A stretch of 64,000 nt of DNA from Planctomycetota bacterium (lineage in GTDB: Bacteria; Planctomycetota; UBA11346), in NCBI GenBank assembly GCA_038203025.1, contig JBBREK010000001.1:6165-70164 (forward strand). The letters run 5' to 3'. Positions 3,411-64,000 of the stretch are shown piece after piece (position 1 is the first letter of the stretch; every line of letters begins with the position of its first letter). The notes under the pieces were generated by a model. That model had not been told where the DNA came from and searched no databases. It was given only the letters and a program-made list of their open reading frames with translations. Made by a program: the position numbers and the translations under genes.

Positions 3411-4658
3411 TTATCCGAACCACGTCCTCACTATGTGGCGCTGCCTTTTGCCCAAAGCCGTGCGTGGCAGGGCGGGGACGATCAGCCAGCGACGCGGGCG
3501 CTTGAAGCCGGCGAGGCGAGGTTGCAGCCAGGCGTCGAGGGCAGCAGGGTCTAGACCGTCCTGCACCACCACCACGGCGGCGGCAACCATCTCGCCCCAG
3601 GTCGCGTCGGGCAGTCCGACGACGCAGGCCTCCGCAACCAGCGGGTGCTGCTGCAGCACCGCCTCGACCTCCGGGGCGGCGACGTTCTCGCCGCCGCTGA
3701 TGATCAACTCGGCGGCCCGGCCAATGATGCGCAGACGGGTGTCTCGCAGCTCGCCAAGATCGCCGGTGGTGTGCCAGGTCGGGGCTGGTTCCAACTTGCC
3801 GTCGACCTCGTAGCCGTCGAAGCACATCGGCCCACCAACCAGGATGCGCCCGTCATCGATCCGGACCTGTGCGGTGGGCACGGGCAAGCCATCGAGCGTC
3901 ACCATGCTGCCCATCTCGGTCAGGCCGTAGGTCTCGCGCACTGGCCAGCCCAGTCGTCGGGCCGCTGCTGCCACGGCCGCATCCAGCGGGCCCCCGCCGA
4001 TCAGCGCGTGCTGCAGTCGCGGGGGCGGCGGGGTGCCGGCTGCAACCAGCCGGGCGAGCATGGTCGGCACCAGGCTGGCGCCGGTGGCGTCCGCTCCGGG
4101 CGCGGCCTCCAGGTCGACGGCGCCGCCGCAGGCCAGGGCGCGCAACGTCGCCATGATGCCGCCGACGTGATCGAGCGGCAGCGGCAGCGACCAGTGATCC
4201 GCCGCGTTGAGGCCGAGGGCGGCGACGTGCGCGGCCACCGCTGCCGCGATCGCTGATCGGCCCAGGCGCACTGCGCGCGGCGCGCCGGTGGTGCCGGAGG
4301 TGAACAGGACAAGGGCGCCGCTGATTGGGCCGACGGTTCCGACCGGACCGGCGAAGACTGGCGGCATGGCCACGGTCGGGACGGCCTCGGCCAATGGGTG
4401 CGTGGGATCGGCGATGGTCAGTCGTACGGCGGTACGGGCATGCAGGGTACGCAGCTCAGCGATGGTCAGTCGACGGTTGAGCGGCACCACGGTCAAGCCA
4501 AGGCGCAGGGCCGCCGCCAGCAGCTGCACGGTGGCTGGCGTGTTGAGACCGCCGAGGGCGATGCGGTCGCCGGCGTTCAGGCCGTGATTGCGCAGCCAGA
4601 CCGTCGCCGCCGCCTCGCCTGGCCAGGCCCAGCCGTCGTCATGGCGCAGCGGCCTCAC
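3411..4658 (-). CDS. menE: o-Succinylbenzoate-CoA ligase (AMP-binding enzyme).
   Basis: Adenylate-forming motifs are present (LFTSGTTGAPRAV, TYGLTEMG, GDLGELRD..IIGRAAELIISGGENV). The only plausible start is the GTG at 4658, which overlaps the menC stop as GTGA. The ORF-track N-terminal extension to 5267 is Arg-rich antisense junk. Confidence 0.7.
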   Translation of the reverse strand: MRPLRHDDGWAWPGEAAATVWLRNHGLNAGDRIALGGLNTPATVQLLAAALRLGLTVVPLNRRLTIAELRTLHARTAVRLTIADPTHPLAEAVPTVAMPPVFAGPVGTVGPISGALVLFTSGTTGAPRAVRLGRSAIAAAVAAHVAALGLNAADHWSLPLPLDHVGGIMATLRALACGGAVDLEAAPGADATGASLVPTMLARLVAAGTPPPPRLQHALIGGGPLDAAVAAAARRLGWPVRETYGLTEMGSMVTLDGLPVPTAQVRIDDGRILVGGPMCFDGYEVDGKLEPAPTWHTTGDLGELRDTRLRIIGRAAELIISGGENVAAPEVEAVLQQHPLVAEACVVGLPDATWGEMVAAAVVVVQDGLDPAALDAWLQPRLAGFKRPRRWLIVPALPRTALGKRQRHIVRTWFG

Positions 4659-5572
4659 GGCGTTACCGCAAAGCCGAGGCCGGGTCCGTCGATATGGGCG
4701 GGATCGAAGTCGCCGACGTCGCGCGCCAGCAGCCCGCCGGTGGCCAGGCCGTGTGGTCCGGGCAGGCCGAGATGCAGGGCGAGGTGGGCGGCGTGGGCGC
4801 GCTCGACCGCGCTGCCCAGGGCCGAGGACAGCACTACCTCCAGGCCAGCGAGGCGCGCCAGCGTGGTCAGTGCCGTGGTCGCGGCCCAGCCGCCGAGCCA
4901 GTTCGGCTTCAGTACGATCACGTCGCAGGCTCCGGCGGCGATGGCTCGGGCCAGGTCGTCCTGGCCGCGTATCGACTCGTCGAGGGCGATGCGCAGGCCG
5001 GCGCGGCGCAGTTCGGCGCAACCGGCGAGATCGCCGGCCGGCAGGGGCTGCTCGACGTAGTCGACCAGACGGCCGGCGAGGCGGGCGAAGGCGTGTGCCC
5101 CGGCGCGGTCCCAGGCGCCGTTGGCATCCAGGCGCAGCCGCAGGCCGGGCTCGCGGGCGAGCAGTCCGCGCACGCGTGCGGCGTCGGCCGGTGGATCGCC
5201 GCTGCTCTTCAGTTTCACCGTGCCGCCGCCGAGGGCCTCGCTGTCGCCGGTGGCCAGGCGATTGCATGCGACGGCTCCAGCGCAGCCGGCCAGGGGACTG
5301 CCGGCCTGACGGGCAGCGTGATCACGGCGCGCGCCCTCGACCGCGGCCAGGGCGCAGGGCGTGGCCATGCCTGGTTCGCCGCCAGCGACGGCACGCTCAA
5401 GGGCAAGCTCGCAGCGTTCCGGTGCCTCGCCGCCGTAGCCGGGCAGCGGGGCTGCCTCGCCCCAGCCATAGCCGATTGAGACCAGCCAGACGGTGCGCTC
5501 AGCAATGGTGCCCAGGGCGGTACGCAGCGGGATGCGCAGCGGTAGGCGCAGCCGGTGCACGCGTGGGATCAC
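4655..5572 (-). CDS. menC: o-Succinylbenzoate synthase (enolase superfamily).
   Basis: Has a VKLK motif, an LRLDANGAW metal-ligand region and EQP. It lies between menA and menE with 4-bp overlaps. Confidence 0.8.
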   Translation of the reverse strand: MIPRVHRLRLPLRIPLRTALGTIAERTVWLVSIGYGWGEAAPLPGYGGEAPERCELALERAVAGGEPGMATPCALAAVEGARRDHAARQAGSPLAGCAGAVACNRLATGDSEALGGGTVKLKSSGDPPADAARVRGLLAREPGLRLRLDANGAWDRAGAHAFARLAGRLVDYVEQPLPAGDLAGCAELRRAGLRIALDESIRGQDDLARAIAAGACDVIVLKPNWLGGWAATTALTTLARLAGLEVVLSSALGSAVERAHAAHLALHLGLPGPHGLATGGLLARDVGDFDPAHIDGPGLGFAVTP

Positions 5573-52060: not shown

Positions 52061-55000
52061 ATGCCAGTCGTCGACCCCGTTGACCCCGCCGATTTTCGCA
52101 CGCCCCCGCCCGGCTACGGCGAGGTGCCGTTCTGGTGGTGGAACGGCGACCATCTCGATCCGGCGCGGCTGCGCTGGCAGCTCGACCGCCTGGCTGGCTG
52201 CGGCGTGTCGGGCGTGCAGATCAACTACGCGCACGCCCCGCATGGCGGTGGCGGCTACGGCCTGACCTACCCCAGCGATCCGCCGCTGTTCTCCGAGGCC
52301 TGGTGGCGGGTGTGGGACGACACCGTCGAGGCCTGCCGCGAGCGCGGCCTGCGCATCGGCCTCAGCGATTACACCCTGGCCTGGCCCGGCAACGGCCAGT
52401 GGGTCGATCGCATCGCCGCCGATCCGGCCTTCCGTGGCGCCGTGCTGCGCCATCGCCTCGCGACGGTCGCCGACGGGGCGGTGTTCGTCGACGAGTTGCC
52501 GTACGATCCGCTATGTGTGCGCGCCTATCCGCTACACGGTGCCGTGGCCGACGGCGCCGCTGGCCGCGATCTCGGTGCCTCCCGCAGCCAACGATGGACC
52601 AGTCCGCCCGGCGCCTGGCTGGTGGTCGCGCTGTGGCCCGAGCCGGTTGCGCAGTCGCTCGATCCGCTGCATCCGCAGCTCGGGCGACGGGTGGTCGAGG
52701 AACACTTCCAGCGCTTCGTCGACCGCCTGCCGCCAGCCTCGGCCGGCGCTCTCGACTACTTCTTCCAGGACGAGTTGATGTTCGGCCTCGGCAACGGCAG
52801 ACCGTGGTCGTCGCATCTGCCGGCGGCCTTCCGCGCGCGGAATGGCTACGACCTCATCCCCGAACTGCCGGCGCTGGTCGCCGACCTCGGCCAGCACAGC
52901 GCCAAGGTGCGTCTCGACTGCGCCGACGCCGCAGCGCAGCTGATGGAGGATGGCTACTTCCGTCCCATCCATGCCTGGCACGCACAGCGCGGCATGACCT
53001 ACGGCTGCGACCAGCTTGGTCGCGGCACCCAGCCGCAGCGCTACGGCGGCTACATGCGTGCGATTCGCTGGTTCAGCGCCCCCGGCCACGATACGCCGGG
53101 GGTCGGCGCCGATCTGGTCAAGGGCAAGGTGTCGAGCTCGATCGCCCACCTCAACCGTCGGCCGCGCGTCTGGCTGGAGGGTTACCACAGCGCCGGCTGG
53201 GGCATGGAGCCGGCCCGCATCCTTGATGCGACGGTGCGCAACTTCGCCTACGGCTGCTCGCTGCTCAGCCTGCACGGCCTGTACTACAGCACGCATGGCA
53301 GCCACTGGGAGTGGGCGCCGCCGTGCTACCACTTCCGCATGCCCTATTGGCGCGACTTCGCCGACGGTCTGCGCGGCGTCGAACGGCTGAGCTGGCTGCT
53401 GACCCGCGGCGTGCACCGCTGCGACGTCGCCGTGCTTTACCCGGTCGCGGCCCTCGACAGCGGCCTGGCCGACAGCCCCGAGCCCGCCTTCGCCGCCATC
53501 CGCCACTTGGTCGAGCAGGGTTGCGACGCCGACTTCATCGATGACGGGGCGCTGGCCGAGGCGCAGGTCGTTGACGGAGTGCTGGCGGCGGCCGACGAGC
53601 GCTTCCGCGTCCTTGTCCTGGCCGACGCCGTGGCCATGCGTCACGCCGCGCTGGAGCGCGCCGCTGAATTTGCCCGGGCCGGCGGGCTGGTCGTGCTGCT
53701 CGGCCGTCCACCGCGGGCGAGCGAACGGCAGGGGGATGGCGATGCGGTGGTGGCGGCGCTGGCGGCGGAGATCGCCGGCCACGGCGTTCAAGCCGACAGT
53801 CCCGCCGCGGCGTTGGCGGCGATCAGCGCGCGCATCCCGCGCGACTGCGTGCCGGCGGCGTCGGCCCTGGTCCTGCACCGCGCCTGCGACGACCTCGACC
53901 TGTGGCTGCTGGTCGGGGCGCGGCCCGGCGCCGCGTTTGAGCTGCGCGCGGTCGGCGCGGTCGAGCTGTGGGATCCGTGGACCGGCGCCATCGCGCCGCT
54001 GGCTGACGCGGTCTGCGGCCCGCACACCACGAGCCTCCGCCTGCCACCGACCCCGGTGCCACACGACGCCTGGATCGTGGTGGTGCGGCATGGTCCGCCA
54101 CCGGTGGCGGAGGTCGCGCCGACGGCGCAGCCGGTGGTGGTCACCAGCACGTCGCTCGAAGGGCCCTGGGAGTTCCAGCTCGAACCGACCCTCGATAACC
54201 AGTGGGGCGACTTCCGCCTGCCAATCAGCGAGGCGATGATCGGCGCCGAGGCACGCCAGCTGGAGGTGCAGAAGGCGGACGGTTCGTGGCGTACCGCCAC
54301 TTGCGGCTTCGGGCCGCAGGCATGGCGACTCGAGGTGCCGGAGGGGGTCGATGCGGCCGCGGCGCTGAGCGCCGTGCTCGCCGCCGCCCACGTCGATCCG
54401 GCGCGATCCCTGGCGGTCGGCGGTCGTGACCTGCCGTGGGCGGCGCAGGAGTTCTCGTGGCGCTGGGGCGTCGAGGGCCAACCCGGCAGCCAGGGCTATC
54501 ACGGGCTCAAGGGCGTGCTCAGCGATGAGGTGCTGGCGCTCGGCGTGCGGGCGGCTGACCCGCCGGCCTACCTGTGGAGCGAGGCCGAGCTGCAGCCTGG
54601 CGGCATCCAGACACGGCTGCTGTGGACGACACTGCATGCACCCGGCGGCGCCGTCGCCCGCGTCCAGGTCGGCGGCCTGGTGCCGACTGGCATGTGGCTG
54701 GACGGCCGGCCGATCGCAGCCGGGGCGCGCGTGACGGTGGGTGACGGCGCCCGTCTGGTCCTGCGCTACGACGGCGTCGGGCGTAGCCATGTCGTGCTGC
54801 GTCGCGAGCTGGCTCCGGCTGCGCGTCGTCCGCTGGCGAGTTCGTGGTGGTGCGATGACGCCGTGCTGCCGTGGGCGGTGGAACCACATGGCGGGGAGAT
54901 GGTCTGCCGCTGCCTCGCCCCGCCCGGCCTCGTCGGCTTCACCCTGATGGCGCACGGCGTGGTGGCGGCGTCCGTCGCCGGCGTGCCGGTCCCGCTGACC

Positions 55001-55507
55001 GAGACCGGCCGGCGTGAGGACGGGGCGCGCACCCTGGTCGGGACGCTGCCCCAGGCCCTACCCGAGCCGGCCGAGTTGCTCCTGCACCTGTGTACCCCGC
55101 CAGGATGGAGCGGCCTGCTCGCCCTGCCCGAGCCGGTGCGCTTCGCCACCGCCGTGGGTCGCCTGCCGGCCGGCGACTGGTCGCAAGTCGGCGTGCTACG
55201 CGACTATTCGGGCGCCGCCTGGTACCGCCGCGATCTCGACCTCGCTGAGGTCGCCGGCCGCACATGGGTCGATCTCGGGGCAGTCGGCGCCACCGCCCTG
55301 GTGCGGCTCAACGGCGAAGACATCGGCACGCTGCTCAGCACCCCCTGGCGCCTTGAACTGACCGGCCGTCTGCGTCCTGGCCGCAACCGTCTGGAGATCC
55401 GCGTCAGCAACACGCTCGCCAACCACTACCGCACAGTTCCGACCCGCTACCACGGCGACCTGGTCAGTGGGCTGCTTGGACCGGTCCGCCTGCTGCGTGA
55501 ATCGTAG
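52061..55507 (+). CDS. Large (1148 aa) putative glycoside hydrolase with an N-terminal FWWWNGD-type catalytic region and a C-terminal GH2-like sugar-binding jelly-roll domain.
   Basis: The N-terminus has a PFWWWNGD motif, which I associate from memory with large GH106-type (rhamnosidase-like) hydrolases. The C-terminus VRLNGEDIGTL..PWRLELTGRLRPGRNRLEIRVSNTLANHY matches the GH2 N-terminal/sugar-binding pattern. It is divergently paired with an AraC regulator. Confidence 0.5.
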   Translation: MPVVDPVDPADFRTPPPGYGEVPFWWWNGDHLDPARLRWQLDRLAGCGVSGVQINYAHAPHGGGGYGLTYPSDPPLFSEAWWRVWDDTVEACRERGLRIGLSDYTLAWPGNGQWVDRIAADPAFRGAVLRHRLATVADGAVFVDELPYDPLCVRAYPLHGAVADGAAGRDLGASRSQRWTSPPGAWLVVALWPEPVAQSLDPLHPQLGRRVVEEHFQRFVDRLPPASAGALDYFFQDELMFGLGNGRPWSSHLPAAFRARNGYDLIPELPALVADLGQHSAKVRLDCADAAAQLMEDGYFRPIHAWHAQRGMTYGCDQLGRGTQPQRYGGYMRAIRWFSAPGHDTPGVGADLVKGKVSSSIAHLNRRPRVWLEGYHSAGWGMEPARILDATVRNFAYGCSLLSLHGLYYSTHGSHWEWAPPCYHFRMPYWRDFADGLRGVERLSWLLTRGVHRCDVAVLYPVAALDSGLADSPEPAFAAIRHLVEQGCDADFIDDGALAEAQVVDGVLAAADERFRVLVLADAVAMRHAALERAAEFARAGGLVVLLGRPPRASERQGDGDAVVAALAAEIAGHGVQADSPAAALAAISARIPRDCVPAASALVLHRACDDLDLWLLVGARPGAAFELRAVGAVELWDPWTGAIAPLADAVCGPHTTSLRLPPTPVPHDAWIVVVRHGPPPVAEVAPTAQPVVVTSTSLEGPWEFQLEPTLDNQWGDFRLPISEAMIGAEARQLEVQKADGSWRTATCGFGPQAWRLEVPEGVDAAAALSAVLAAAHVDPARSLAVGGRDLPWAAQEFSWRWGVEGQPGSQGYHGLKGVLSDEVLALGVRAADPPAYLWSEAELQPGGIQTRLLWTTLHAPGGAVARVQVGGLVPTGMWLDGRPIAAGARVTVGDGARLVLRYDGVGRSHVVLRRELAPAARRPLASSWWCDDAVLPWAVEPHGGEMVCRCLAPPGLVGFTLMAHGVVAASVAGVPVPLTETGRREDGARTLVGTLPQALPEPAELLLHLCTPPGWSGLLALPEPVRFATAVGRLPAGDWSQVGVLRDYSGAAWYRRDLDLAEVAGRTWVDLGAVGATALVRLNGEDIGTLLSTPWRLELTGRLRPGRNRLEIRVSNTLANHYRTVPTRYHGDLVSGLLGPVRLLRES

Positions 55508-56086: not shown

Positions 56087-56110
56087 AGCATCAGCGTCAG
56101 CATCAGCATC
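56087..56110. repeat. (AGCRTC)4 hexamer repeat directly after the flavin-reductase stop.
   Basis: Read directly as agcatcagcgtcagcatcagcatc. A decayed copy (gcgctgacgcgc) follows, and a terminator hairpin lies about 13 bp further downstream. Confidence 0.7.
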
Positions 56111-56123
56111 GCGCTGACGCGCT

Positions 56124-56148
56124 CCTGGAGGGGTCTCGACCCCTCCAG
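56124..56148 (+). terminator. Hairpin CTGGAGGGG-TCTCGA-CCCCTCCAG (a 9-bp perfect stem) downstream of the flavin-reductase gene.
   Basis: Read directly. Confidence 0.5.
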
Positions 56149-56300
56149 ACCTCCCCGACCGGGCTCTGCCCTGGACCCGCAAGCCCGGCTCGCTGACGCT
56201 CACCGATTGCGCGTCCCACGTCCAGCGAGGTGTGCTCGGCTCCGGCCAAGCCTACGCCTGCGCCACCATCAGGACGTACCTTCGCGACGTACTTTCGATC

Positions 56301-56347
56301 CGTAGCGCCGGCGTTAGCCGGCCCGGTCGGCAGGCTTCAGCCTGCCG
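56301..56347. repeat. REP-like twin-hairpin element, copy 2 (CGTAGCGCCGGCGTTAGCCGG-CCCGG-TCGGCAGGCTTCAGCCTGCCG).
   Basis: 42 of 47 bp are identical to 7091..7137. The second stem carries compensatory G>A / C>T changes. The TGA stop of the ligase-like gene lies in the loop. Confidence 0.5.
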
Positions 56348-57596
56348 CGTCGGCCGCCGTGGATTCCAAACCGCCTCGCACAGAGCCACCCAGGCTGGCC
56401 CCAAGCACCAATCCCAGGGCGGCGTGGAAGCCCATGCCCGGCGCTGCCTGCGTCGGCAATGGCTCGAAGATGGCGCAGACCACGGCCGCGACAGCCAGCC
56501 CGCAGCCGGCCTGGAAGGCTTCGGGGGCTTCGCGCCGACGCCGCCACAGCATCGCCAGTACGGTCAGGACCAAGGCCAGATGCAGGACGGCAGCAGGCAG
56601 GCCGTGCTCGGCCGCCACCGCCAGCAGCCAGTCGTGGGCGTGCGGGCAGCCACCCTGGTCGGCGAATTCATTCGGCGGACCGGGTGCCACGCGGTCGTAG
56701 GTGTCGTTCCAGGCCAATTCGAAGGCCTTGCGGTGCCCGAGGCCCAGCAACGGCCGTTCGCCGATCATCACCGTGGTGACCTGCCAGATCGGCAGGCGGC
56801 CATCCTGCCCGGCGAGCATCGAGCGCAGACGGTCGCCATCGGTCATGGCCAGTCGGGCAAGCATGGCACCACCCAGCACCACGGCGACGAGGCCGGCGAC
56901 CAGCAGCCAGCGCCGTCCGCGCACCGCCAGCGCAGCGGCGAGGCCTGCCGTCCCGCCGAGGATGGCGGCCCGTGCCCCGCAGATGCCGACCCCGACCAGC
57001 CCGATCATCCGCCCGGCCCAGGCCCAGGCCGTGCCGGCCATCACCGGCACGCTCAGCGCGGCGAGGATGGCGCCGGCGAAGCCATAGCTGAGGTGGAAGG
57101 AACTGAAGCCGCGGGCATAAGCGAATCGATGCCCGTCGGGATCAATGCGCAGCGGCCCCTTGCCCAATCCGACGCAGAACTGCAGCAGGGCGACCGTCAG
57201 CGCAATGCCGCCGGTGACCACCAGGGCGCGCAAGGCGAAGCGCAGCCAGCGCGCATCGGCCGCTGCCGCGGCGACCAGGGGCACCGCCAGCCAGACGTAG
57301 GCCAAACCGCTAATGCGGTCGCAGCCCGGCTGTCCGCGCAGCCAGCCGCTGAGATTGCTGGCCAGCACCCAGGCGCCGAGGACGAGACCGACGTGCAGCG
57401 CCGGCAGCCGATGCAGCGGCGGGCGCGCCAGGATCGCTCCGACGAAGGCGACGGCGAGGCCGAACAGGCCCCACGGCGGGGTCAGGAAGATGCCGCACAG
57501 CATACCGGTGCTGCCTATCCACAGCAGCCAGCGTCCGATGACTGGTGCTGAGCGCGGCGGTGCGGCGTCGATCCGTGCGTTCCAGGCGGCGAGCAT
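56337..57596 (-). CDS. O-antigen ligase/polymerase-family membrane protein (WaaL/Wzy_C-like).
   Basis: Polytopic, with a periplasmic loop HRKAFELAWNDTYDRVAPGPPNEFADQGGCPHAHDWLL resembling the Wzy_C motif. Confidence 0.55.
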   Translation of the reverse strand: MLAAWNARIDAAPPRSAPVIGRWLLWIGSTGMLCGIFLTPPWGLFGLAVAFVGAILARPPLHRLPALHVGLVLGAWVLASNLSGWLRGQPGCDRISGLAYVWLAVPLVAAAAADARWLRFALRALVVTGGIALTVALLQFCVGLGKGPLRIDPDGHRFAYARGFSSFHLSYGFAGAILAALSVPVMAGTAWAWAGRMIGLVGVGICGARAAILGGTAGLAAALAVRGRRWLLVAGLVAVVLGGAMLARLAMTDGDRLRSMLAGQDGRLPIWQVTTVMIGERPLLGLGHRKAFELAWNDTYDRVAPGPPNEFADQGGCPHAHDWLLAVAAEHGLPAAVLHLALVLTVLAMLWRRRREAPEAFQAGCGLAVAAVVCAIFEPLPTQAAPGMGFHAALGLVLGASLGGSVRGGLESTAADAAG

Positions 57597-57616
57597 CAGG
57601 CGGTCACCTGCTGTTC
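57585..57616. repeat. Left copy of the 32-bp direct repeat GGC[G]GCGAGCATCAGGCGGTCACCTGC[T]GTTC flanking the vapBC cassette. It contains the ligase start codon.
   Basis: Matches 58489..58520 at 30 of 32 bp. Confidence 0.7.
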
Positions 57617-57681
57617 ACATAGCACGGCCAGCTGAAGGTTCCGCCTCAGCCTGATGATTCCGACGATCTTCGTGGGGCGGC

Positions 57682-58125
57682 TCATGTAGTGGCGTCCGGC
57701 TCGGTGATGTGCGGCTCGTCCCAGAAGGGGATGAAGTCCTTGCGATTGAGGGTCCAGATGCACGCGGCGCCGGCGCGCCGGAGGCAGACGACATGTAATG
57801 CGTCGTGCACCGCGCCGCCGCTACGACCGGCAGCAGCAGCGACGGCGCGGATGGCCTCCAGCTGGCAGGCTTCGTCCACCGCCACGACCTGCAGTCGGGC
57901 AGCCAGTTCGCGGCCGACCAGCAGCTCGGCGTCGGCGGCGCGGATCGCCGGACGTAGCGGCAGCCGGGTCAGCACCGAAAAGGTCTCGGCCAAGGCATGG
58001 GCGCAGATGGTTCCGGTGATGCCGTCGCGCTCGCAGCGTTCGAGCAGGGCGCGGCAGGCGCGATGGCGCGGGTGCGGCACGACCAGGGCGGCGACCAGGA
58101 CCGAGGTGTCGAAGCCCCAGATCAC
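57682..58125 (-). CDS. vapC: PIN-domain toxin (VapC).
   Basis: Has the conserved acidic residues of a PIN domain (FDTSVL, D..ETF, LNRKDF). Its start overlaps the vapB stop by 4 bp. Confidence 0.7.
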   Translation of the reverse strand: MIWGFDTSVLVAALVVPHPRHRACRALLERCERDGITGTICAHALAETFSVLTRLPLRPAIRAADAELLVGRELAARLQVVAVDEACQLEAIRAVAAAAGRSGGAVHDALHVVCLRRAGAACIWTLNRKDFIPFWDEPHITEPDATT

Positions 58126-58409
58126 GGCACCATGCCAGCGAGGCGGTCGGTCCGCTCGTCACGCAGGGTCTGCAGCAGGCTGCGTGTTGGATCTTGGCCA
58201 TCGAGCGGGCCGACCCAGGCGCCGTCGTAGACCATGCGTCCCTCGGCCAGACGCAGGCCGCCGGGGCCGGCGGCGGCGGCGGGCTCAAGATGCACGGAGT
58301 TGGCATCCTCGCTTAGCACCAGGGTCGTGCCTGCCACCCAGCCATGGCGATCGCGGATCTCCTTGGGAATCACAACGCGACCGAAGCGGTCGATGGCAAG
58401 CGTTGTCAT
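58122..58409 (-). CDS. vapB: AbrB/MazE/SpoVT-type antitoxin (VapB).
   Basis: N-terminal swapped-hairpin motif IDRFGRVVIPKEIRDRHGW. A small upstream partner of the PIN gene. Confidence 0.65.
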   Translation of the reverse strand: MTTLAIDRFGRVVIPKEIRDRHGWVAGTTLVLSEDANSVHLEPAAAAGPGGLRLAEGRMVYDGAWVGPLDGQDPTRSLLQTLRDERTDRLAGMVP

Positions 58410-58438
58410 GGCAATGGCATTCTGTCAATGCCATTGCC
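58410..58438 (-). promoter_or_regulatory. Putative vapBC operator: a perfect 12-bp inverted repeat GGCAATGGCATT-ctgtc-AATGCCATTGCC that abuts the vapB start codon.
   Basis: The palindrome was read directly. Toxin-antitoxin operons are classically autoregulated through such operators. Confidence 0.5.
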
Positions 58439-58488
58439 ATGAGCAAGCGTCAATACCCCCCCTTGCTGAGCAGGACGACGTCGCTGGT

Positions 58489-58520
58489 GGCCGCGAGCAT
58501 CAGGCGGTCACCTGCCGTTC
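58489..58520. repeat. Right copy of the 32-bp direct repeat. It contains the gmd stop and a remnant of the ligase start (ATGCTCGCGGCC...).
   Basis: See 57585..57616. Confidence 0.7.
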
Positions 58521-59465
58521 GTGCGCCACCAGTCGGGACACCACCCCGCGCCAATCGGTGGCGGCCGTCCAGCCGAGGCCGCGCTTCGCCTTGGCGGCGT
58601 TACCGACCGAGCGCATCAGGTCGGTCGGTCGCAGCAGGGCGGGATCGGCGTCGACGTGCTGGCGCCAGTCGAGGTCGAGGCTGGCGAAGGCCTCGGCGAC
58701 GAATTCCTGCAGCGAGGCGTCGGTGCCGGTGGCGATGACGTAGTCGTCGGCGAGATCCTGCTGCAGCATGGCATGCATCGCCACGACGTATTCCGGGGCC
58801 CAGCCCCAGTCGCGGCGGATGGCGGTATTGCCCAGGCGCAGCCGTTCGCCGGAGCCGGCGGCGATACGGCAGGCGGTCTGCACGATCTTGCGGGTGACGA
58901 AGCGGGTTGGCCGCAGCGGACTCTCATGGTTGAAGAGGATGCCGCTGCAGGCGAAGAGGCCGTAGGCTTCGCGATAGTTGGCGACCAGCCAGTAGGAGGT
59001 CGCCTTGGCGACGGCGTAGGGGCTACGCGGGTGGAAGGGATGCAATTCGTCGGCGCCGGCTGAGGTCACCTCACCGAAGCACTCGCTGCTCGCCGCGTTG
59101 TACAGGCGCACTGGCCGGGCGAGAAAGCGGACCGCCTCCAGCAGGTTGATCGTGCCGATGCCGATGCTGTCCAGCGTTTCGACCGGTTGCTCGAACGACA
59201 GGCCTACCGACGATTGCCCGGAGAGGTTGTAGACCTCGTCGGGTTGGTGTTGGGCCAGCGTCTGGACGACGCTGCGGAAATCGATCGGGTTCATCGACGC
59301 GAGGGTCACCCGCGCCGTGATTCCCAGGGCATCGAGGCCTCCGGTGCGCGCCGTGCCGGCGTCGCGTGAGGTGCCGATCACGCGATAGTCCAGACCAAGC
59401 AGGTGGCTGGCCAGCCAGGCCCCATCCTGGCCGGTGGCTCCGACGATCATGGCGGTGCGGCCCAT
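58500..59465 (-). CDS. gmd: GDP-mannose 4,6-dehydratase.
   Basis: Has GATGQDG, RSPYAVAK, ILFNHESP and VTRKI motifs. The ATG at 59465 overlaps the upstream stop as TGATG. Confidence 0.8.
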   Translation of the reverse strand: MGRTAMIVGATGQDGAWLASHLLGLDYRVIGTSRDAGTARTGGLDALGITARVTLASMNPIDFRSVVQTLAQHQPDEVYNLSGQSSVGLSFEQPVETLDSIGIGTINLLEAVRFLARPVRLYNAASSECFGEVTSAGADELHPFHPRSPYAVAKATSYWLVANYREAYGLFACSGILFNHESPLRPTRFVTRKIVQTACRIAAGSGERLRLGNTAIRRDWGWAPEYVVAMHAMLQQDLADDYVIATGTDASLQEFVAEAFASLDLDWRQHVDADPALLRPTDLMRSVGNAAKAKRGLGWTAATDWRGVVSRLVAHERQVTA

Positions 59466-60865
59466 CAGTATGCTCCCTTGCCCAGTAGGACGACACGCAC
59501 GGTGCGCGCCAGCACCACTAGGTCCAGCCACACCGACCAGTTGCGCACGTAGTAGCAATCCAGCGCGACGCGCTCGCCGTAGGTGGTGTCGTTGCGGCCG
59601 GACACCTGCCACAGGCCGCTGAGTCCGGGGCGGACCTTGCCGTACAACTCGTAGTGGACTCCGTATTTCACCACCTCATCCCGAACGATCGGGCGCGGGC
59701 CGACCAGGCTCATCTCGCCGCGTAGGATGTTCCACAGCTGGGGCAACTCATCGAGCGAGGTGCGGCGGAGGAACCGCCCGATCCAGGTGACGCGCGGATC
59801 GTCCTTCAGCTTGTGGTCGCGCTCCCACTCGGCGCGCAGCTCGGGATGGCGCTCGAGGTACGCCGCCAGCTGGGCGTCGGCGTCCTTGACCATGCTGCGG
59901 AACTTCCAGGCGCGGAATTCGCGCCCGCCGCGCCCGAGCCGGCGTTGGCCGTAGAACAGCGGACCAGCCGAGGTCACCGTCACCGCCAGGGCGATGCCGG
60001 CGAAGAGCCAGCTGAACAGCACCAGGCCGAGCGACACCGCCACCACGTCGACGATGCGTTTGATCACCCGCGCCTCGGGACGCAGCAGGTTCTGCCGCAC
60101 CTCCAGCACCAGGGTGTTGGCGAACTCGCGGGTCTCGGCGATGACGTCCGGACTACCCGGCAGGGCCGGGGCGATGAAGACATGGCGCAGCTGGTCGCCG
60201 AGCTGGTCGAGCATGCGCGACAGCTGGTCCGGCGGCAGGCCAGGCATGGCGAGGATGGCGTGGCGGATGCCCTCGGCGTGGAGGCGCGGCAGGTCGGCGA
60301 GGGTGCCGTCGACGCGCAGGCCACCGGCCTCGGCGCCCTGCTTGGCGGCATCGTCATCGAGCAGCGCGACTGGTCGCAAGCCCAGCCACGGCCGCGAGCG
60401 CAGGAGTCCGACGACCTGCACCCCGGTGGCGCCGGCCCCGAGCACCGCCACTGGTACACCCCACCAGCCCGAGCGGCACAGCGCCCGGCGGACGCCGGCA
60501 TGCAGCAGCGGCACCGCCGGCAGGGCGAGCAGCCAGGTCGCGGCGAAGACCTGGCGCGACCACGCCGTACCGCTCTGGCCGAGGAAGGTCAGGGCGACGG
60601 CGCCGACGATGACGATGGTGGTGCCCTGGCTCAGCCGGCGCAGCTCCTCGGCCGGGCCCCAGCCGATGCCCGGATACAGGTCAAGCAGGGCGTAGACGGC
60701 GGCTGCGCCACCGAGCAGCAGCGGCAGGGCCTGCAGGTACATGGCCAGTGGCAGTTCCGGGTTGGTCCACGCCTTGAGCCACCAGGAGACTGCGGCACAG
60801 GCTGCCAGCGCCGTCAGGTCGGCAGCGATCAGGGCGAGACAGGTCGGTAAGGAGCGGGCGCGCAC
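59465..60865 (-). CDS. Polyprenyl-phosphate hexose-1-phosphate transferase (WbaP-like bacterial sugar transferase), the initiating enzyme.
   Basis: N-terminal transmembrane segments, a central Rossmann-like region, and a C-terminal sugar-transferase domain (LSLVGPRP, GLSGLWQVSGRN). Confidence 0.75.
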   Translation of the reverse strand: MRARSLPTCLALIAADLTALAACAAVSWWLKAWTNPELPLAMYLQALPLLLGGAAAVYALLDLYPGIGWGPAEELRRLSQGTTIVIVGAVALTFLGQSGTAWSRQVFAATWLLALPAVPLLHAGVRRALCRSGWWGVPVAVLGAGATGVQVVGLLRSRPWLGLRPVALLDDDAAKQGAEAGGLRVDGTLADLPRLHAEGIRHAILAMPGLPPDQLSRMLDQLGDQLRHVFIAPALPGSPDVIAETREFANTLVLEVRQNLLRPEARVIKRIVDVVAVSLGLVLFSWLFAGIALAVTVTSAGPLFYGQRRLGRGGREFRAWKFRSMVKDADAQLAAYLERHPELRAEWERDHKLKDDPRVTWIGRFLRRTSLDELPQLWNILRGEMSLVGPRPIVRDEVVKYGVHYELYGKVRPGLSGLWQVSGRNDTTYGERVALDCYYVRNWSVWLDLVVLARTVRVVLLGKGAY

Positions 60866-60958: not shown

Positions 60959-62149
60959 CTACGGCAACGGAACCAGACCCAGCAGTCCGCGCCACCGCAG
61001 TGCGAACACCTGCGGATCATGGTCGCGGCGCAGATGCTCCTGGCCGATGACGATGGCACGGCGCAGGTCGTCCAGACGGGCCTCGGGATCGGCGATGAAG
61101 GCTGCCCAGGTGGCGTCGTCATCGGGCAGGATCAGTGGATACCCGGGCCAGTCGACGCCCTCGAACGCGGCCTGGTTACCAACCGCCGGGCAGCCATGCG
61201 CGACGGCCTCCAGCATCTTGGTCTTCACCCCGCCGGCCAGGGCTGACGGATTCAGCAGCACGCTGCGCCCGTCGTAGGTCGCGGCGGCGAGGTCGGCGAC
61301 GAAGCCATGGCAAACCACCCCGGCTGGTGCCACGATGCCGTTTGGCTCGCGCCGGCCGAACCAGTGCAGCTCGCGACCGGCTGGAGCGTGGGCCCACAGG
61401 CGGAACAGGCGCAGCAGGGTCAGGCGGTTCTGCGACAGGTTCTCGCCACCGACGAAAATCAGGCGTGGCGGCGTGGCCAGTTCCGCCCCCGGACGCACGA
61501 GCACCTGGGCCGGCGGGACGCAGCGGATGCGCGCCTGCAGCGCGGCCGGCACCAGAGCGCGGTTGGCGGCGCACTCGGCCGGCGAGAGCAGCACGACCTC
61601 GTCGCACAGGCGGACGAGTTCGCGCTCGACCCGTTCCAGCGACCACGCTTCGTAGCGCAACACCAGGCCACCGAGCTGGGCGAGCAGCCAGCGCAGCGGC
61701 CGCGGTGCCAGCCGGGCGACGTAGCCGAGATTGGGTGGATCGCCGATCGCGAGCTGCAGCCGGGCGCGGCGTGACAGCAGGTCGTGCGAGTCGCACACCA
61801 GTCGGCGTCCTGGGCGGCGCAGGTGGCGCACCGCGGCGATGCAGCGCACACCATCGATGTAGACCGTCTCGGCCGAACCGACCTCGGCGAGCGCTTGGCG
61901 GAGCGCAGCCGAGGCTGCATAAAGCGCGCATTGCAGCGGCTCGGGTCGCAACGTCGCCAGCCGCCACAGCCAGTGCAGCCCGGCGCTCAGGCGTGCGCCC
62001 CAGCCCAGCTCCAAAGCGTGGCGCAGGCGGACGTGATGCACCTCGCGCAGCGCCCCGGCGTAAAGATCGGCGATGATGCGCGGCCGCCCGGCAGCGGCGT
62101 TGGGCTCGTGGTCGCGGGTCCACAGGGCGGCGCAATTGGAGTCGTTCAC
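60959..62149 (-). CDS. Glycosyltransferase family 4 (GT1 fold).
   Basis: Has the GGVKTKMLEAVAHGCPAV motif. The GTG start at 62149 overlaps the upstream stop as GTGA. Confidence 0.65.
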   Translation of the reverse strand: MNDSNCAALWTRDHEPNAAAGRPRIIADLYAGALREVHHVRLRHALELGWGARLSAGLHWLWRLATLRPEPLQCALYAASAALRQALAEVGSAETVYIDGVRCIAAVRHLRRPGRRLVCDSHDLLSRRARLQLAIGDPPNLGYVARLAPRPLRWLLAQLGGLVLRYEAWSLERVERELVRLCDEVVLLSPAECAANRALVPAALQARIRCVPPAQVLVRPGAELATPPRLIFVGGENLSQNRLTLLRLFRLWAHAPAGRELHWFGRREPNGIVAPAGVVCHGFVADLAAATYDGRSVLLNPSALAGGVKTKMLEAVAHGCPAVGNQAAFEGVDWPGYPLILPDDDATWAAFIADPEARLDDLRRAIVIGQEHLRRDHDPQVFALRWRGLLGLVPLP

Positions 62150-63588
62150 GTGGCCGTATTCCTCTCTGGATCGGGAGCGTCGTCCACCTGCCCGTGCGGC
62201 AATGCGAGCCAGGCCAGTGCGATCCATGGCGCGGGCAGAGCGAAGCTGTCCAGGGAGAGCCCGTCCAGCACAAGAGTCACTCCGACGAGGATGCCCATCA
62301 GGAGGATTCGCCGATCGGCGCGCCAGAGGCCGAGAAAATGCAGCAGGCTGAACACGGCAAAAGCGGCGAAGCCCAGCACGCCGGTCTCGGCGAGCAGACG
62401 CAGCGGCATGTTCTTGGGATTCGGCAGGGGGCCGGCAGAGCGGTCAAGGGTCGCTGCTGCTTCCCCGTTAGCTGGCATCTGCATGGCCCAGCCTGGGAAT
62501 GATTCGATCATCGGCCAGGCTGCTAGACCAAGCCCCCATCCCATCAGCGGTTTTTCGAGAAACGATCTCCAGGCGGCTTCCCAGCAGGCGATGCGGAAGT
62601 GCGTGCCGGTGCGTTGCAAGGCCTGATGCGGATAGCTCTGTGCGGATGGGGCGGGTTGATCGCAGACGATTTCGTTGACTACCGTGCGGGCATAGGGCGA
62701 GCGTAAGGACAGCGCCAGCGAGGCGATCAGAACAAGCATGACGATGCTGGCGTCGCGTAATCGTCGCCATGGCTTGTGCGACCGGTCGAACAGTAGCCAA
62801 CCAAACGCGACTGAGGCGATGGCGATCAGTTGCGCGGCCCCGCTGCGTGCAGTGCTCAGACCGACGATGAGTGCGGCGGTGGTGGCAACCATGGCACTAA
62901 GGCGGCCAGGTCTGGTTAACGCGGTAGACAGGGCGAGTGGGATGATCAGGACGCAGCATGTGCTTGCCAGCCAACTGGGTTCAAGCGCCAGCCCCCACGC
63001 GCGGCCACCCTGCAGCCAGGATTCAGCGGCATGCGTACCCGTGATGTGACGGGCCATCCACAGGGCGGCGTCGTGTGCCCATATGGCGCCCGACGTCGCC
63101 AGTACTTGGATCGCCACCGCGACGACGATGGCGGCCATCGCGAGGTACAGCATGCGTTCGCCATTGCGCCGAACGTCGGGATCTGCAGCAATCGCCCTGG
63201 TGGCCAGGTAGATGCCAGCACCAAGGGCCAGGGAGAGGACCCCTTTGCCCATGGCTAGCCACGGCGCGACGTGCTTGAGCGGCATCAAATCGGGCAGTGA
63301 GATCAGCGCAGCACCAATGCCGATCGCAGCAAAGCTGCCCAGCAGCCAGATGTGCCGTTCTCCACACAACCGCAGGACGGCCGTGCAACTGAGGATAAGG
63401 GCCATCGCGCACAGCAGGGCCGTTGGCGGTTTCACCAGAGTTGGCAGCGGCAGAAAGGCCGCCGTCGTCACGGGAAAGAACAACATACCCATATACCACA
63501 GCCAACGCGCGGCCTTTGGGCAGGAAGCGGTCGCCGCCGTGGATGCCAAACGGGGGGTGGTCTGTTCCGTCGCCGCCGGCATCTTCAT
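62146..63588 (-). CDS. Wzy-like O-antigen polymerase / O-antigen-ligase-family polytopic membrane protein.
   Basis: Many transmembrane helices. It sits between glycosyltransferases in the cluster. The start was set at the ATG (MKMPAAT) that overlaps the upstream stop. Confidence 0.45.
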   Translation of the reverse strand: MKMPAATEQTTPRLASTAATASCPKAARWLWYMGMLFFPVTTAAFLPLPTLVKPPTALLCAMALILSCTAVLRLCGERHIWLLGSFAAIGIGAALISLPDLMPLKHVAPWLAMGKGVLSLALGAGIYLATRAIAADPDVRRNGERMLYLAMAAIVVAVAIQVLATSGAIWAHDAALWMARHITGTHAAESWLQGGRAWGLALEPSWLASTCCVLIIPLALSTALTRPGRLSAMVATTAALIVGLSTARSGAAQLIAIASVAFGWLLFDRSHKPWRRLRDASIVMLVLIASLALSLRSPYARTVVNEIVCDQPAPSAQSYPHQALQRTGTHFRIACWEAAWRSFLEKPLMGWGLGLAAWPMIESFPGWAMQMPANGEAAATLDRSAGPLPNPKNMPLRLLAETGVLGFAAFAVFSLLHFLGLWRADRRILLMGILVGVTLVLDGLSLDSFALPAPWIALAWLALPHGQVDDAPDPERNTAT

Positions 63589-64000
63589 AGCCCCAGCCTC
63601 TCCTTCACCCGATAGGCCCAGGCCCCACGCGGCACCAGGGATTTCAGCGTGTTCACCACGCCCAGTCGCCATTCGCTCAGCGCCCCGTTGAGCATCCCGT
63701 GCATCGCGCGGGCGCGGCGGTTCTCGGCGTGGCGGCGGCGCAGGTTGGCGCTGGCACCGCCCTGGTAGAATCGGGCGACGATCGCCGGGCAGGTCTGCGG
63801 CAGATGACCGCGGCTGATCAGCCGCAGCCAGAGTTCGTAGTCCATGGAACTACGGAAGGTCGGGTCGAAACCGCCGACCTCGCGCAGCAGGGCGGTCTCG
63901 CACAGGGTCGCGGCATGCCACACGCGGCAGTCGTGGCGCACCAGGTTACGCGCCTCGCCGGTCGGCGGAACGCGAGTGAACAGCACCGATTCATTCTCGC
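63585..64000 (-). CDS. Glycosyltransferase family 2, C-terminal part. The gene continues beyond the window end.
   Basis: DYELWLRL.. motif of GT2. The frame is open to the window edge. Confidence 0.5.
   Translation of the reverse strand, partial: ENESVLFTRVPPTGEARNLVRHDCRVWHAATLCETALLREVGGFDPTFRSSMDYELWLRLISRGHLPQTCPAIVARFYQGGASANLRRRHAENRRARAMHGMLNGALSEWRLGVVNTLKSLVPRGAWAYRVKERLGL

Follow-up and report, generated by a model that had tools for sequence, protein, structure and literature searches.

Gene clusters for O-antigen, capsule and exopolysaccharide (EPS) are reshuffled by recombination, with whole genes present or absent between conserved flanking genes, and one of the routes is homology-facilitated illegitimate recombination (HFIR) during natural transformation, in which a novel junction forms in a short microhomology beside long homologous flanks. 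HFIR during natural transformation was reportedly treated by de Vries and Wackernagel in 2002. Neighbouring genes can be translationally coupled through overlapping stop and start codons (ATGA, TGATG) and through short upstream relay open reading frames (ORFs). Type II VapBC toxin-antitoxin (TA) modules have an antitoxin gene 5' of a PIN toxin gene, a 4-nucleotide (nt) overlap between the two, conserved acidic residues in the toxin and a palindrome over the antitoxin start, and insertion sequences (IS) and transposons are flanked by direct target-site duplications, usually of 2-14 bp. Here we describe a locus that resembles each of these systems in part. It lies in a 64,000-nt stretch of DNA (the window) from a Planctomycetota bacterium (assembly GCA_038203025.1, contig JBBREK010000001.1, positions 6,165 to 70,164), where a vapBC module within a polysaccharide operon stands between gmd and an O-antigen ligase-like gene and is bracketed by an imperfect 32-nt direct repeat. 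On balance we favour the reading that this repeat is a scar of recombination between versions of one polysaccharide locus, and not a transposition footprint. Part of the evidence comes from two short ORFs, relic ORF 1 between gmd and vapB and relic ORF 2 between vapC and the ligase-like gene.

Gene ends preserved beside the 32-nt repeats

Gene identities were taken from a Pfam domain search of the window proteins, and wbaP, gmd, vapB, vapC and the ligase-like gene are all on the minus strand. The features of the block are as follows.

59465..60865, minus strand: wbaP-like initiating sugar transferase (Pfam Bac_transf, E = 2.5e-64, plus CoA_binding_3)
58500..59465, minus strand: gmd, GDP-mannose 4,6-dehydratase, intact (Pfam GDP_Man_Dehyd, E = 3.6e-99)
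58489-58520: right copy of the 32-nt repeat, GGCCGCGAGCATCAGGCGGTCACCTGCCGTTC; genuine gmd 3' end (20 nt with the stop codon), followed by 12 ligase-start-like nt
58450..58500, minus strand: relic ORF 1, 16 codons, MLAATSDVVLLSKGGY and stop; ligase-like ATGCTCGCGGCC running into a decayed 3' end of wbaP
58406-58421 / 58427-58442: perfect palindrome with 16-nt arms (100% complementary) and a 5-nt loop
58122..58409, minus strand: vapB antitoxin, 95 amino acids (aa), MazE/AbrB-type (AbrB/SpoVT-type; Pfam MazE_antitoxin, E = 1.6e-7)
57682..58125, minus strand: vapC PIN-domain toxin, 147 aa (Pfam PIN, E = 8.6e-14; PIN_3, E = 1.3e-9)
57596..57685, minus strand: relic ORF 2, 29 codons, 90 nt, MSRPTKIVGIIRLRRNLQLAVLCEQQVTA and stop; in-frame remnant of a second gmd
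57585-57616: left copy of the 32-nt repeat, GGCGGCGAGCATCAGGCGGTCACCTGCTGTTC; relic gmd tail plus genuine ligase start
56337..57596, minus strand: O-antigen ligase/polymerase-like membrane protein, last gene of the block (Pfam Wzy_C, E = 3.7e-12)

The initial annotation had taken the 872-bp segment between the repeats for a mobile TA cassette, inserted at the gmd/ligase junction with a target-site-duplication-like repeat. Its description of the repeats was borne out: the two 32-mers agree at 30 of 32 positions and bracket an intact vapB-vapC pair with its palindrome, and alignment supports the view that the repeated sequence is the junction of the gmd 3' end with the ligase 5' end, which reads CAGGTGACCGCCTGATGCTC in the window. 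Their 23-nt identical core occurs exactly twice in the 64 kb, and none of 100 dinucleotide-preserving shuffles gave a match, with up to three mismatches permitted. The left copy also carries a Shine-Dalgarno-like motif, AGGTGA, 7 nt 5' of the ligase ATG.

What flanks the module inside the repeats was described only in part. In the left copy a fossil gmd tail had been recognised, and indeed the last 21 nt of relic ORF 2 are identical to the genuine gmd end at 20 positions; it had been missed that the stretch from vapC to the left repeat is a gmd 5' relic too. Relic ORF 2 thus consists of a gmd head of ~59 nt, with a translation like MNRTAMIVGI, and a gmd tail of ~21-30 nt, ending in EQQVTA and a stop. 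When its first ~30-59 nt were compared with the gmd heads of the window and of the related loci L017 and L002 (listed below), the scores were reached by 0 of 2000 shuffles, and the score against whole gmd genes by 2 of 2000. The best gmd-head match is that of L017 (score 35), a locus in which gmd directly follows vapC, and relic ORF 2 is in register with this vapC-gmd junction. Both ends of the ORF therefore match gmd colinearly at the place where gmd stands in L017, as would be expected of a pseudogene. The relic and L017 also have ATCGTCGGAATCA in common, and more generally two gmd-head variants can be distinguished, GGAATCA in the relic head and L017 versus GGAGCCA in the living gmd of the window, L002 and L009, a slight argument for two distinct gmd alleles. 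We also considered whether the start of relic ORF 2 might come from a ligase head and set this aside, as it needs gaps, whereas the gmd-head alignment runs ungapped over 30 nt in register with L017.

On the other side of the module, the whole of MLAATSDVVLLSKGGY had been read as a fossil ligase start. The likeness to the ligase head is confined to the first 12 nt, where 11 positions agree, and the remaining 39 nt derive from the 3' end of wbaP. Behind the gmd stop the segment reads ATGCTCGCGGCC ACCAGCGACGTCGTCCTGCTCAGCAAGGGGGGGTATTGA; the ATG of relic ORF 1 overlaps that stop, and the tail of the ORF, comparable to the wbaP end ..VLARTVRVVLLGKGAY and stop, leaves a wbaP relic 5' of vapB that reads ..DVVLLSKGGY and stop. 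The segment aligns over 31-51 nt to wbaP 3' ends. In local alignment, no shuffle out of 2000 attained the scores of relic ORF 1 against the wbaP tails of L001, L016, L017 and L009, and 1 of 2000 attained that against the wbaP tail of the window itself. Relic ORF 1 is, moreover, colinear with L016 and L017.

The 872-bp segment is accordingly no clean cassette, being flanked by wbaP-tail and gmd-head relics. A three-way alignment revealed that window and L017 are colinear through the wbaP tail, the spacer (CGCTTGC..), the palindrome, vapB, vapC and the gmd head (..ATGATCGTCGGAATCACCGG..). Therefore, the DNA between the repeats is a piece of a wbaP-vapBC-gmd-type locus.

Module order in related loci

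Relatives were collected by protein searches with the ligase, VapC and Gmd; the contigs were fetched and the window proteins mapped onto them. The ligase search gave 36 homologues, 11 of them at 78-83% identity. Ligase relatives came from one locus (L003) in a scan of a genome collection and from nine in a scan of metagenomes. Within the locus family the ligase is ~70-83% identical to that of the window, and further relatives lie at 38-49%. The search with Gmd also returned L018, with an unrelated context, and L019, with the order GH3-gmd-ligase. The gene orders recovered were:

wbaP-ligase, direct: L001, L003, L005, L006, L007, L008, L011
wbaP-vapB-vapC-ligase: L016, and GCA_041443025.1 (from gene calls)
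wbaP-vapB-vapC-gmd: L017 (vapC stop overlaps the gmd GTG; contig ends inside gmd)
gmd-ligase, direct, with a GTGA overlap: L002/L004 and L019 (GH3 gene upstream), L013-L015
wbaP-gmd-(ligase-head relic)-(wbaP-tail relic)-different ligase: L009

With W for wbaP, V for vapBC, G for gmd and L for the ligase-like gene, the block between W and L takes four forms in the family: none, V, G, or both. The window order is W-G-(Lhead/Wtail relic)-V-(Ghead..Gtail relic)-L. Every junction that we read has overlapping stop and start codons save wbaP-vapB, where a spacer of 44-45 nt is found in L016 and L017. In L013 and L014 a 147-aa ORF 5' of the ligase was tried as a vapC, and tblastn assigned it to the gmd C-terminus, so that these loci are gmd-ligase.

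The right-hand junction of the window has a counterpart in L009. Behind wbaP and gmd, that locus has a ligase-head relic of 33 nt (28/33 to L013), then ~30 nt of filler and a wbaP-tail relic of 89 nt, and last a different type of ligase (42% identity). The architecture is that of the window junction with other breakpoints, and L009 shows a graft of the same sort, joining W-G-ligase head to a wbaP tail upstream of another ligase. The wbaP/gmd junction TACTGATG is common to the window and L009.

These contexts bear directly on the proposal that a mobile vapBC cassette entered the gmd/ligase junction of a W-G-L operon and duplicated 32 bp of its target. The empty site that it predicts, gmd abutting the ligase with overlapping stop and start and without vapBC, does exist in the gmd-ligase loci listed above; vapBC is absent from many related loci, and direct repeats do stand on both flanks. 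However, the repeat is 32 nt long and imperfect, far longer than known target-site duplications, and we know of no transposition chemistry that a 32-bp duplication would fit. As had been noted initially, the segment contains no transposase or integrase, and we found none elsewhere in the window either. Between the repeats vapB and vapC are the sole genes annotated (further ORFs in the list, overlapping-frame products of the sort usual in GC-rich DNA, lay outside the domain scan), no element-encoded recombinase or terminal inverted repeats were detected, and no inverted repeat pairs the ends of the segment, which are instead wbaP and gmd relics of the locus itself. Nor was the module met at unrelated sites in the window and the three contexts recovered for close relatives of VapC (83-84% identical; L016, L017 and GCA_041443025.1), in all three of which vapBC directly follows wbaP. 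Five more VapC relatives, at 76-86% identity on 1.1-1.5 kb contigs, lie outside this count. The cassette has a GC content of ~0.70, like its flanks, without compositional anomaly, and the window holds no vapBC or gmd paralogue and no second TA pair. Finally, the synonymous divergence (dS) of vapB and vapC from L016 and L017 is 0.37-1.0, within the range of the neighbouring genes (0.38-0.67 for wbaP, gmd and ligase across relatives), and vapBC is therefore a long-standing resident rather than a recent arrival at the gmd/ligase junction. With the segment colinear with L017 and relics on both flanks, we consider insertion of a mobile cassette very unlikely. Direct repeats around a TA pair, in other words, need not mean mobility or target-site duplication.

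Further observations on the related loci concern single contigs. In GCA_041443025.1 the wbaP-vapB spacer measures 181 nt, between wbaP at 3701-5101 and vapB at 5283-5570 (locus coordinates), and could hold further relics. A second TA pair, an 89-aa antitoxin and a 139-aa PIN toxin with 4-nt overlaps, directly follows the ligase in L013 (1683-2368), L014 (1683-2368), L015 (1493-2178), L016 (2797-3482) and GCA_041443025.1, and so two PIN-type pairs bracket the ligase in L016 and GCA_041443025.1; no such pair follows the ligase of the window. The ligase homologue P0015 (462 aa) has a C-terminal extension, ..GEPTVTYGDPHERGPDDATLRARGSRLDDDELARKLRP, that matches the C-terminus of the 89-aa antitoxin (product of L016:2797-3066) and looks like one more product of deletion between neighbouring genes in this family, either a fusion or a relic. 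In the gmd of L009 an in-frame TAG stands at 1060-1062 where the window has CAG (..AMHAML, stop, RD..), and the database entry P0164 is a 234-aa shortened product; the grafted gmd may be a pseudogene, or the TAG a sequencing error. The sole ligase relative from the genome collection, L003 (JALHRW010000044.1; 81% identical), is labelled a Planctomycetota metagenome-assembled genome. Its locus is GC-rich and otherwise like the other metagenomic contigs, and the bin label may not be reliable.

A probable recombination between versions of the locus and competing routes

How could such an order arise? Under the reading that we favour, the immediate ancestor would have been W-V-G-L, similar to L017, and a second segment, W-G-first codons of L, would have come from a W-G-L version of the locus. 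The join would lie near the end of wbaP, within its final ~50 nt, at a place where the ligase head ATGCTCGCCGCC resembles the wbaP tail GTGCTGGCGCGC, and would be of the microhomology-mediated type, that is, a homology-anchored illegitimate recombination, with W-G-(Lhead/Wtail relic)-V-G-L as its product. The redundant downstream gmd would then have been lost by an in-frame deletion that left 29 codons of gmd head and gmd tail. The term HFIR for recombination of this kind is also found in PMC6382021. The structure would fit either partner as the donor and the other as the recipient.

Several features of the window agree with this sequence of events. A novel junction is present at a microhomology, since the 12 ligase-head-like nucleotides abut the wbaP-tail relic. 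These 12 nt match the ligase head at 11 positions and wbaP tails at 7-8 (8/12 for the tail of the window itself; hand count), so the junction lies in a patch of likeness and, to judge from the alignments, is a microhomology junction at which ligase head and wbaP tail are alike. As for a homologous anchor, wbaP is a possible one, and the W-G junction is found in L009 too. The two 32-mers are then most likely the gmd-3'/ligase-5' junctions of the living gmd and of the dead one; the repeat is present because there are two gmd 3' ends, that of the intact gene and that of the deleted one.

A number of observations weigh against this reading. The searches with Gmd recovered neither an intact wbaP-gmd-ligase locus, which would be the W-G-L donor allele, nor a complete wbaP-vapBC-gmd-ligase locus, and as the L017 contig stops within gmd, the full latter order was not seen. 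The comparison loci are metagenomic contigs whose phylogenetic relation to the window is not established. The 12 nt behind the gmd stop could derive from a decayed wbaP tail instead of a ligase head. The two 32-mers are sister-like, sharing CAGGTGACCGCC and TGATGCTCGC where other gmd-ligase junctions read ..GACCCGGCCGTGATCGC.., and such shared features would be explained at least as well by a duplication within the genome, or by gene conversion between two copies resident in it, as by two separate alleles. In addition, the relics are ~20-28% diverged as against 6% for the 32-mers, and this contrast requires selection or conversion. It is largely explained by constraint, because one 32-mer codes for the Gmd C-terminus and the other carries the ligase start and AGGTGA; once constrained positions are left out, the excess conservation of the 32-mers is not statistically compelling by our own binomial estimate.

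The sister-like 32-mers point to an intragenomic route as the nearest competitor. Here an unequal exchange between ligase head and wbaP tail in a W-V-G-L ancestor would tandemly duplicate the unit wbaP tail-vapBC-gmd-ligase head, and the first vapBC and most of the second gmd would later be lost. This leads to the same novel Lhead/Wtail junction and likewise duplicates the wbaP tail and both ends of gmd, and it accounts naturally for the 32-mers being mutual closest relatives that share TGATGCTCGC, which was seen at no other locus. On the other hand, three events are needed; the deletion of vapBC must precisely recreate the clean TACTGATG overlap of wbaP and gmd in the same form as in L009; and the presence of the L017-type GGAATCA in the relic beside GGAGCCA in the living gmd argues for two gmd alleles. 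We regard this route as unlikely, though it deserves to be kept in mind.

The positions at which the repeats end suggest yet another route, a Campbell-type integration. A circularised wbaP tail-vapBC-deleted gmd-ligase head molecule from a W-V-(gmd relic)-L genome would have integrated into a W-G-L locus by homologous recombination over the short gmd-tail/ligase-head homology, and the 32-bp repeats would be the duplicated crossover. The observed order would arise in a single integration step, and the repeats would end where they do, at the limit of the relic homology and at the Lhead/Wtail junction. Yet the donor must already have held the gmd relic, circularisation at a microhomology is needed, an exchange of RecA type must have taken place on just ~32-50 bp, and neither the donor arrangement nor a circle junction occurs in any of the recovered loci. 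Such an integration appears improbable to us.

Since the relatives all come from metagenomes and the window proteins map to a single 76.5-kb NCBI contig, we also considered an assembly chimera, in which reads of co-occurring strains with different versions of the locus were joined; mixtures of W-G-L and W-V-G-L strains would indeed share long k-mers. But the ligase head/wbaP tail and gmd head/gmd tail junctions exist in neither parental arrangement, for which reason graph mis-joins cannot make them, and the relics hold many private substitutions and small indels. An artefact of this sort is extremely unlikely.

Recombination between locus versions would make this case an ordinary instance of polysaccharide-locus mosaicism whose scars happen to be unusually legible. 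It differs from described mosaic clusters and HFIR events in that the scars can be read at the nucleotide level, with duplicated gene ends surviving as short ORFs; a similar graft is found in L009. On this reading the locus is a nucleotide-level record of how a surface-polysaccharide operon was re-ordered, through a microhomology junction, the in-frame loss of a redundant gene and relic ORFs at coupling points. We see its use in annotation and in thinking on operon evolution; it represents no new kind of system.

The vapBC module, probable translational coupling and neighbouring genes

The module itself has the sequence features of a type II VapBC system, with a PIN toxin whose conserved acidic residues are kept and, upstream and overlapping, a small antitoxin gene with a DNA-binding fold. 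D6, E47, D108 and N127 of VapC are invariant in 20 homologues. The vapB stop overlaps the vapC start (GTGA, 58122-58125). VapB is 82-83% identical to VapB of L016 and L017 at the aa level, and the ratio of nonsynonymous to synonymous divergence (dN/dS) is ~0.1 for vapB and ~0.24 for vapC (0.09-0.24 for the two together). From these values vapBC appears as an intact type II module under purifying selection. Likewise, the gmd at 58500..59465, which is 89-92% identical to gmd of L002, L009 and L017 with a dN/dS of 0.08-0.13, is predicted to be a functional copy. What sets the module apart from described VapBC systems is its position inside a polysaccharide operon, joined to the biosynthetic genes downstream by overlapping stops and starts, a position kept in several related loci and not that of a plasmid, an island edge or an integron cassette. 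A VapBC module is thus stably resident between initiating transferase and ligase in several uncultured lineages, and a literature search turned up no description of vapBC within such O-antigen clusters.

The palindrome covers the vapB ATG. It lies in the spacer 58410-58449, which is common to the wbaP-vapB spacer of L016 and L017, where a related, imperfect palindrome occupies the same place. It is the presumed VapB operator, through which vapBC is probably autoregulated. A promoter and terminator scan gave no consensus sigma-70 promoter, and from gmd to the ligase it gave nothing terminator-like beyond one chance-level hairpin inside vapB, so that transcription presumably reads through.

The initial annotation expected the insertion to have broken translational coupling between gmd and the ligase. 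This is doubtful, because relic ORF 2 overlaps both the vapC stop (ATGA) and the ligase start (TGATG, 57594-57598). As had been described, TGATG overlaps are a recurring feature of the block, and join wbaP to gmd (59463-59467) and gmd to relic ORF 1 (58498-58502) as well. Ribosomes leaving vapC could reinitiate at the ATG of relic ORF 2 and come to a stop at its TGA, with which the ligase ATG overlaps; by its overlaps, and with the AGGTGA motif in its last codons, the relic probably keeps vapC coupled to the ligase by relaying ribosomes. The putative relay here would, unlike a dedicated leader, be the decayed remnant of a deleted enzyme gene. A relic would be in frame by chance in one case out of three, which weighs against reading much into the frame, and for this reason we offer relay coupling only as a proposal. 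An RNA-element reading of the relic region was rejected, as folding gave no unusual structure (z = +1.04). A more far-reaching interpretation would treat the overlapping stop/start junctions as a recurrent exchange point at which vapBC and gmd enter and leave, the relics of displaced neighbours as relay ORFs selected for passing ribosomes on to the next gene, and vapBC (with the second PIN pair in some relatives) as a functional part of the operon, for example in locus stabilisation or in phage-linked control of surface-polymer ligation, and not as a passenger. We find this improbable.

The surrounding cluster yielded some additional observations. It contains two distinct Wzy_C-family membrane proteins, the one at 62146-63672 (minus strand; E = 1.2e-14) and the ligase-like protein at 56337-57596 (minus strand; E = 3.7e-12), which may divide the roles of polymerase and ligase between them. 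A GT1-family ORF at 60959-62227 overlaps the Wzy_C gene at 62146-63672 by ~80 nt as listed, and one of the two start codons is probably mis-set. At the other end of the block, a small hairpin (arms 56319-56336 and 56339-56356) spans the ligase stop, and ~200 nt 3' of it on the minus strand lies a strong GC hairpin, GGTCTGGAGGGGTC GAGA CCCCTCCAGGA, without a T-run; the region 56100-56345 (minus strand, 3' of the ligase stop) may be the terminator region of the operon. Convergent to the polysaccharide operon, at 52061-55507 on the plus strand, is a gene for a 1148-aa protein with a GH106 alpha-L-rhamnosidase domain (E = 1.6e-18), which may act on a rhamnose-containing polymer.

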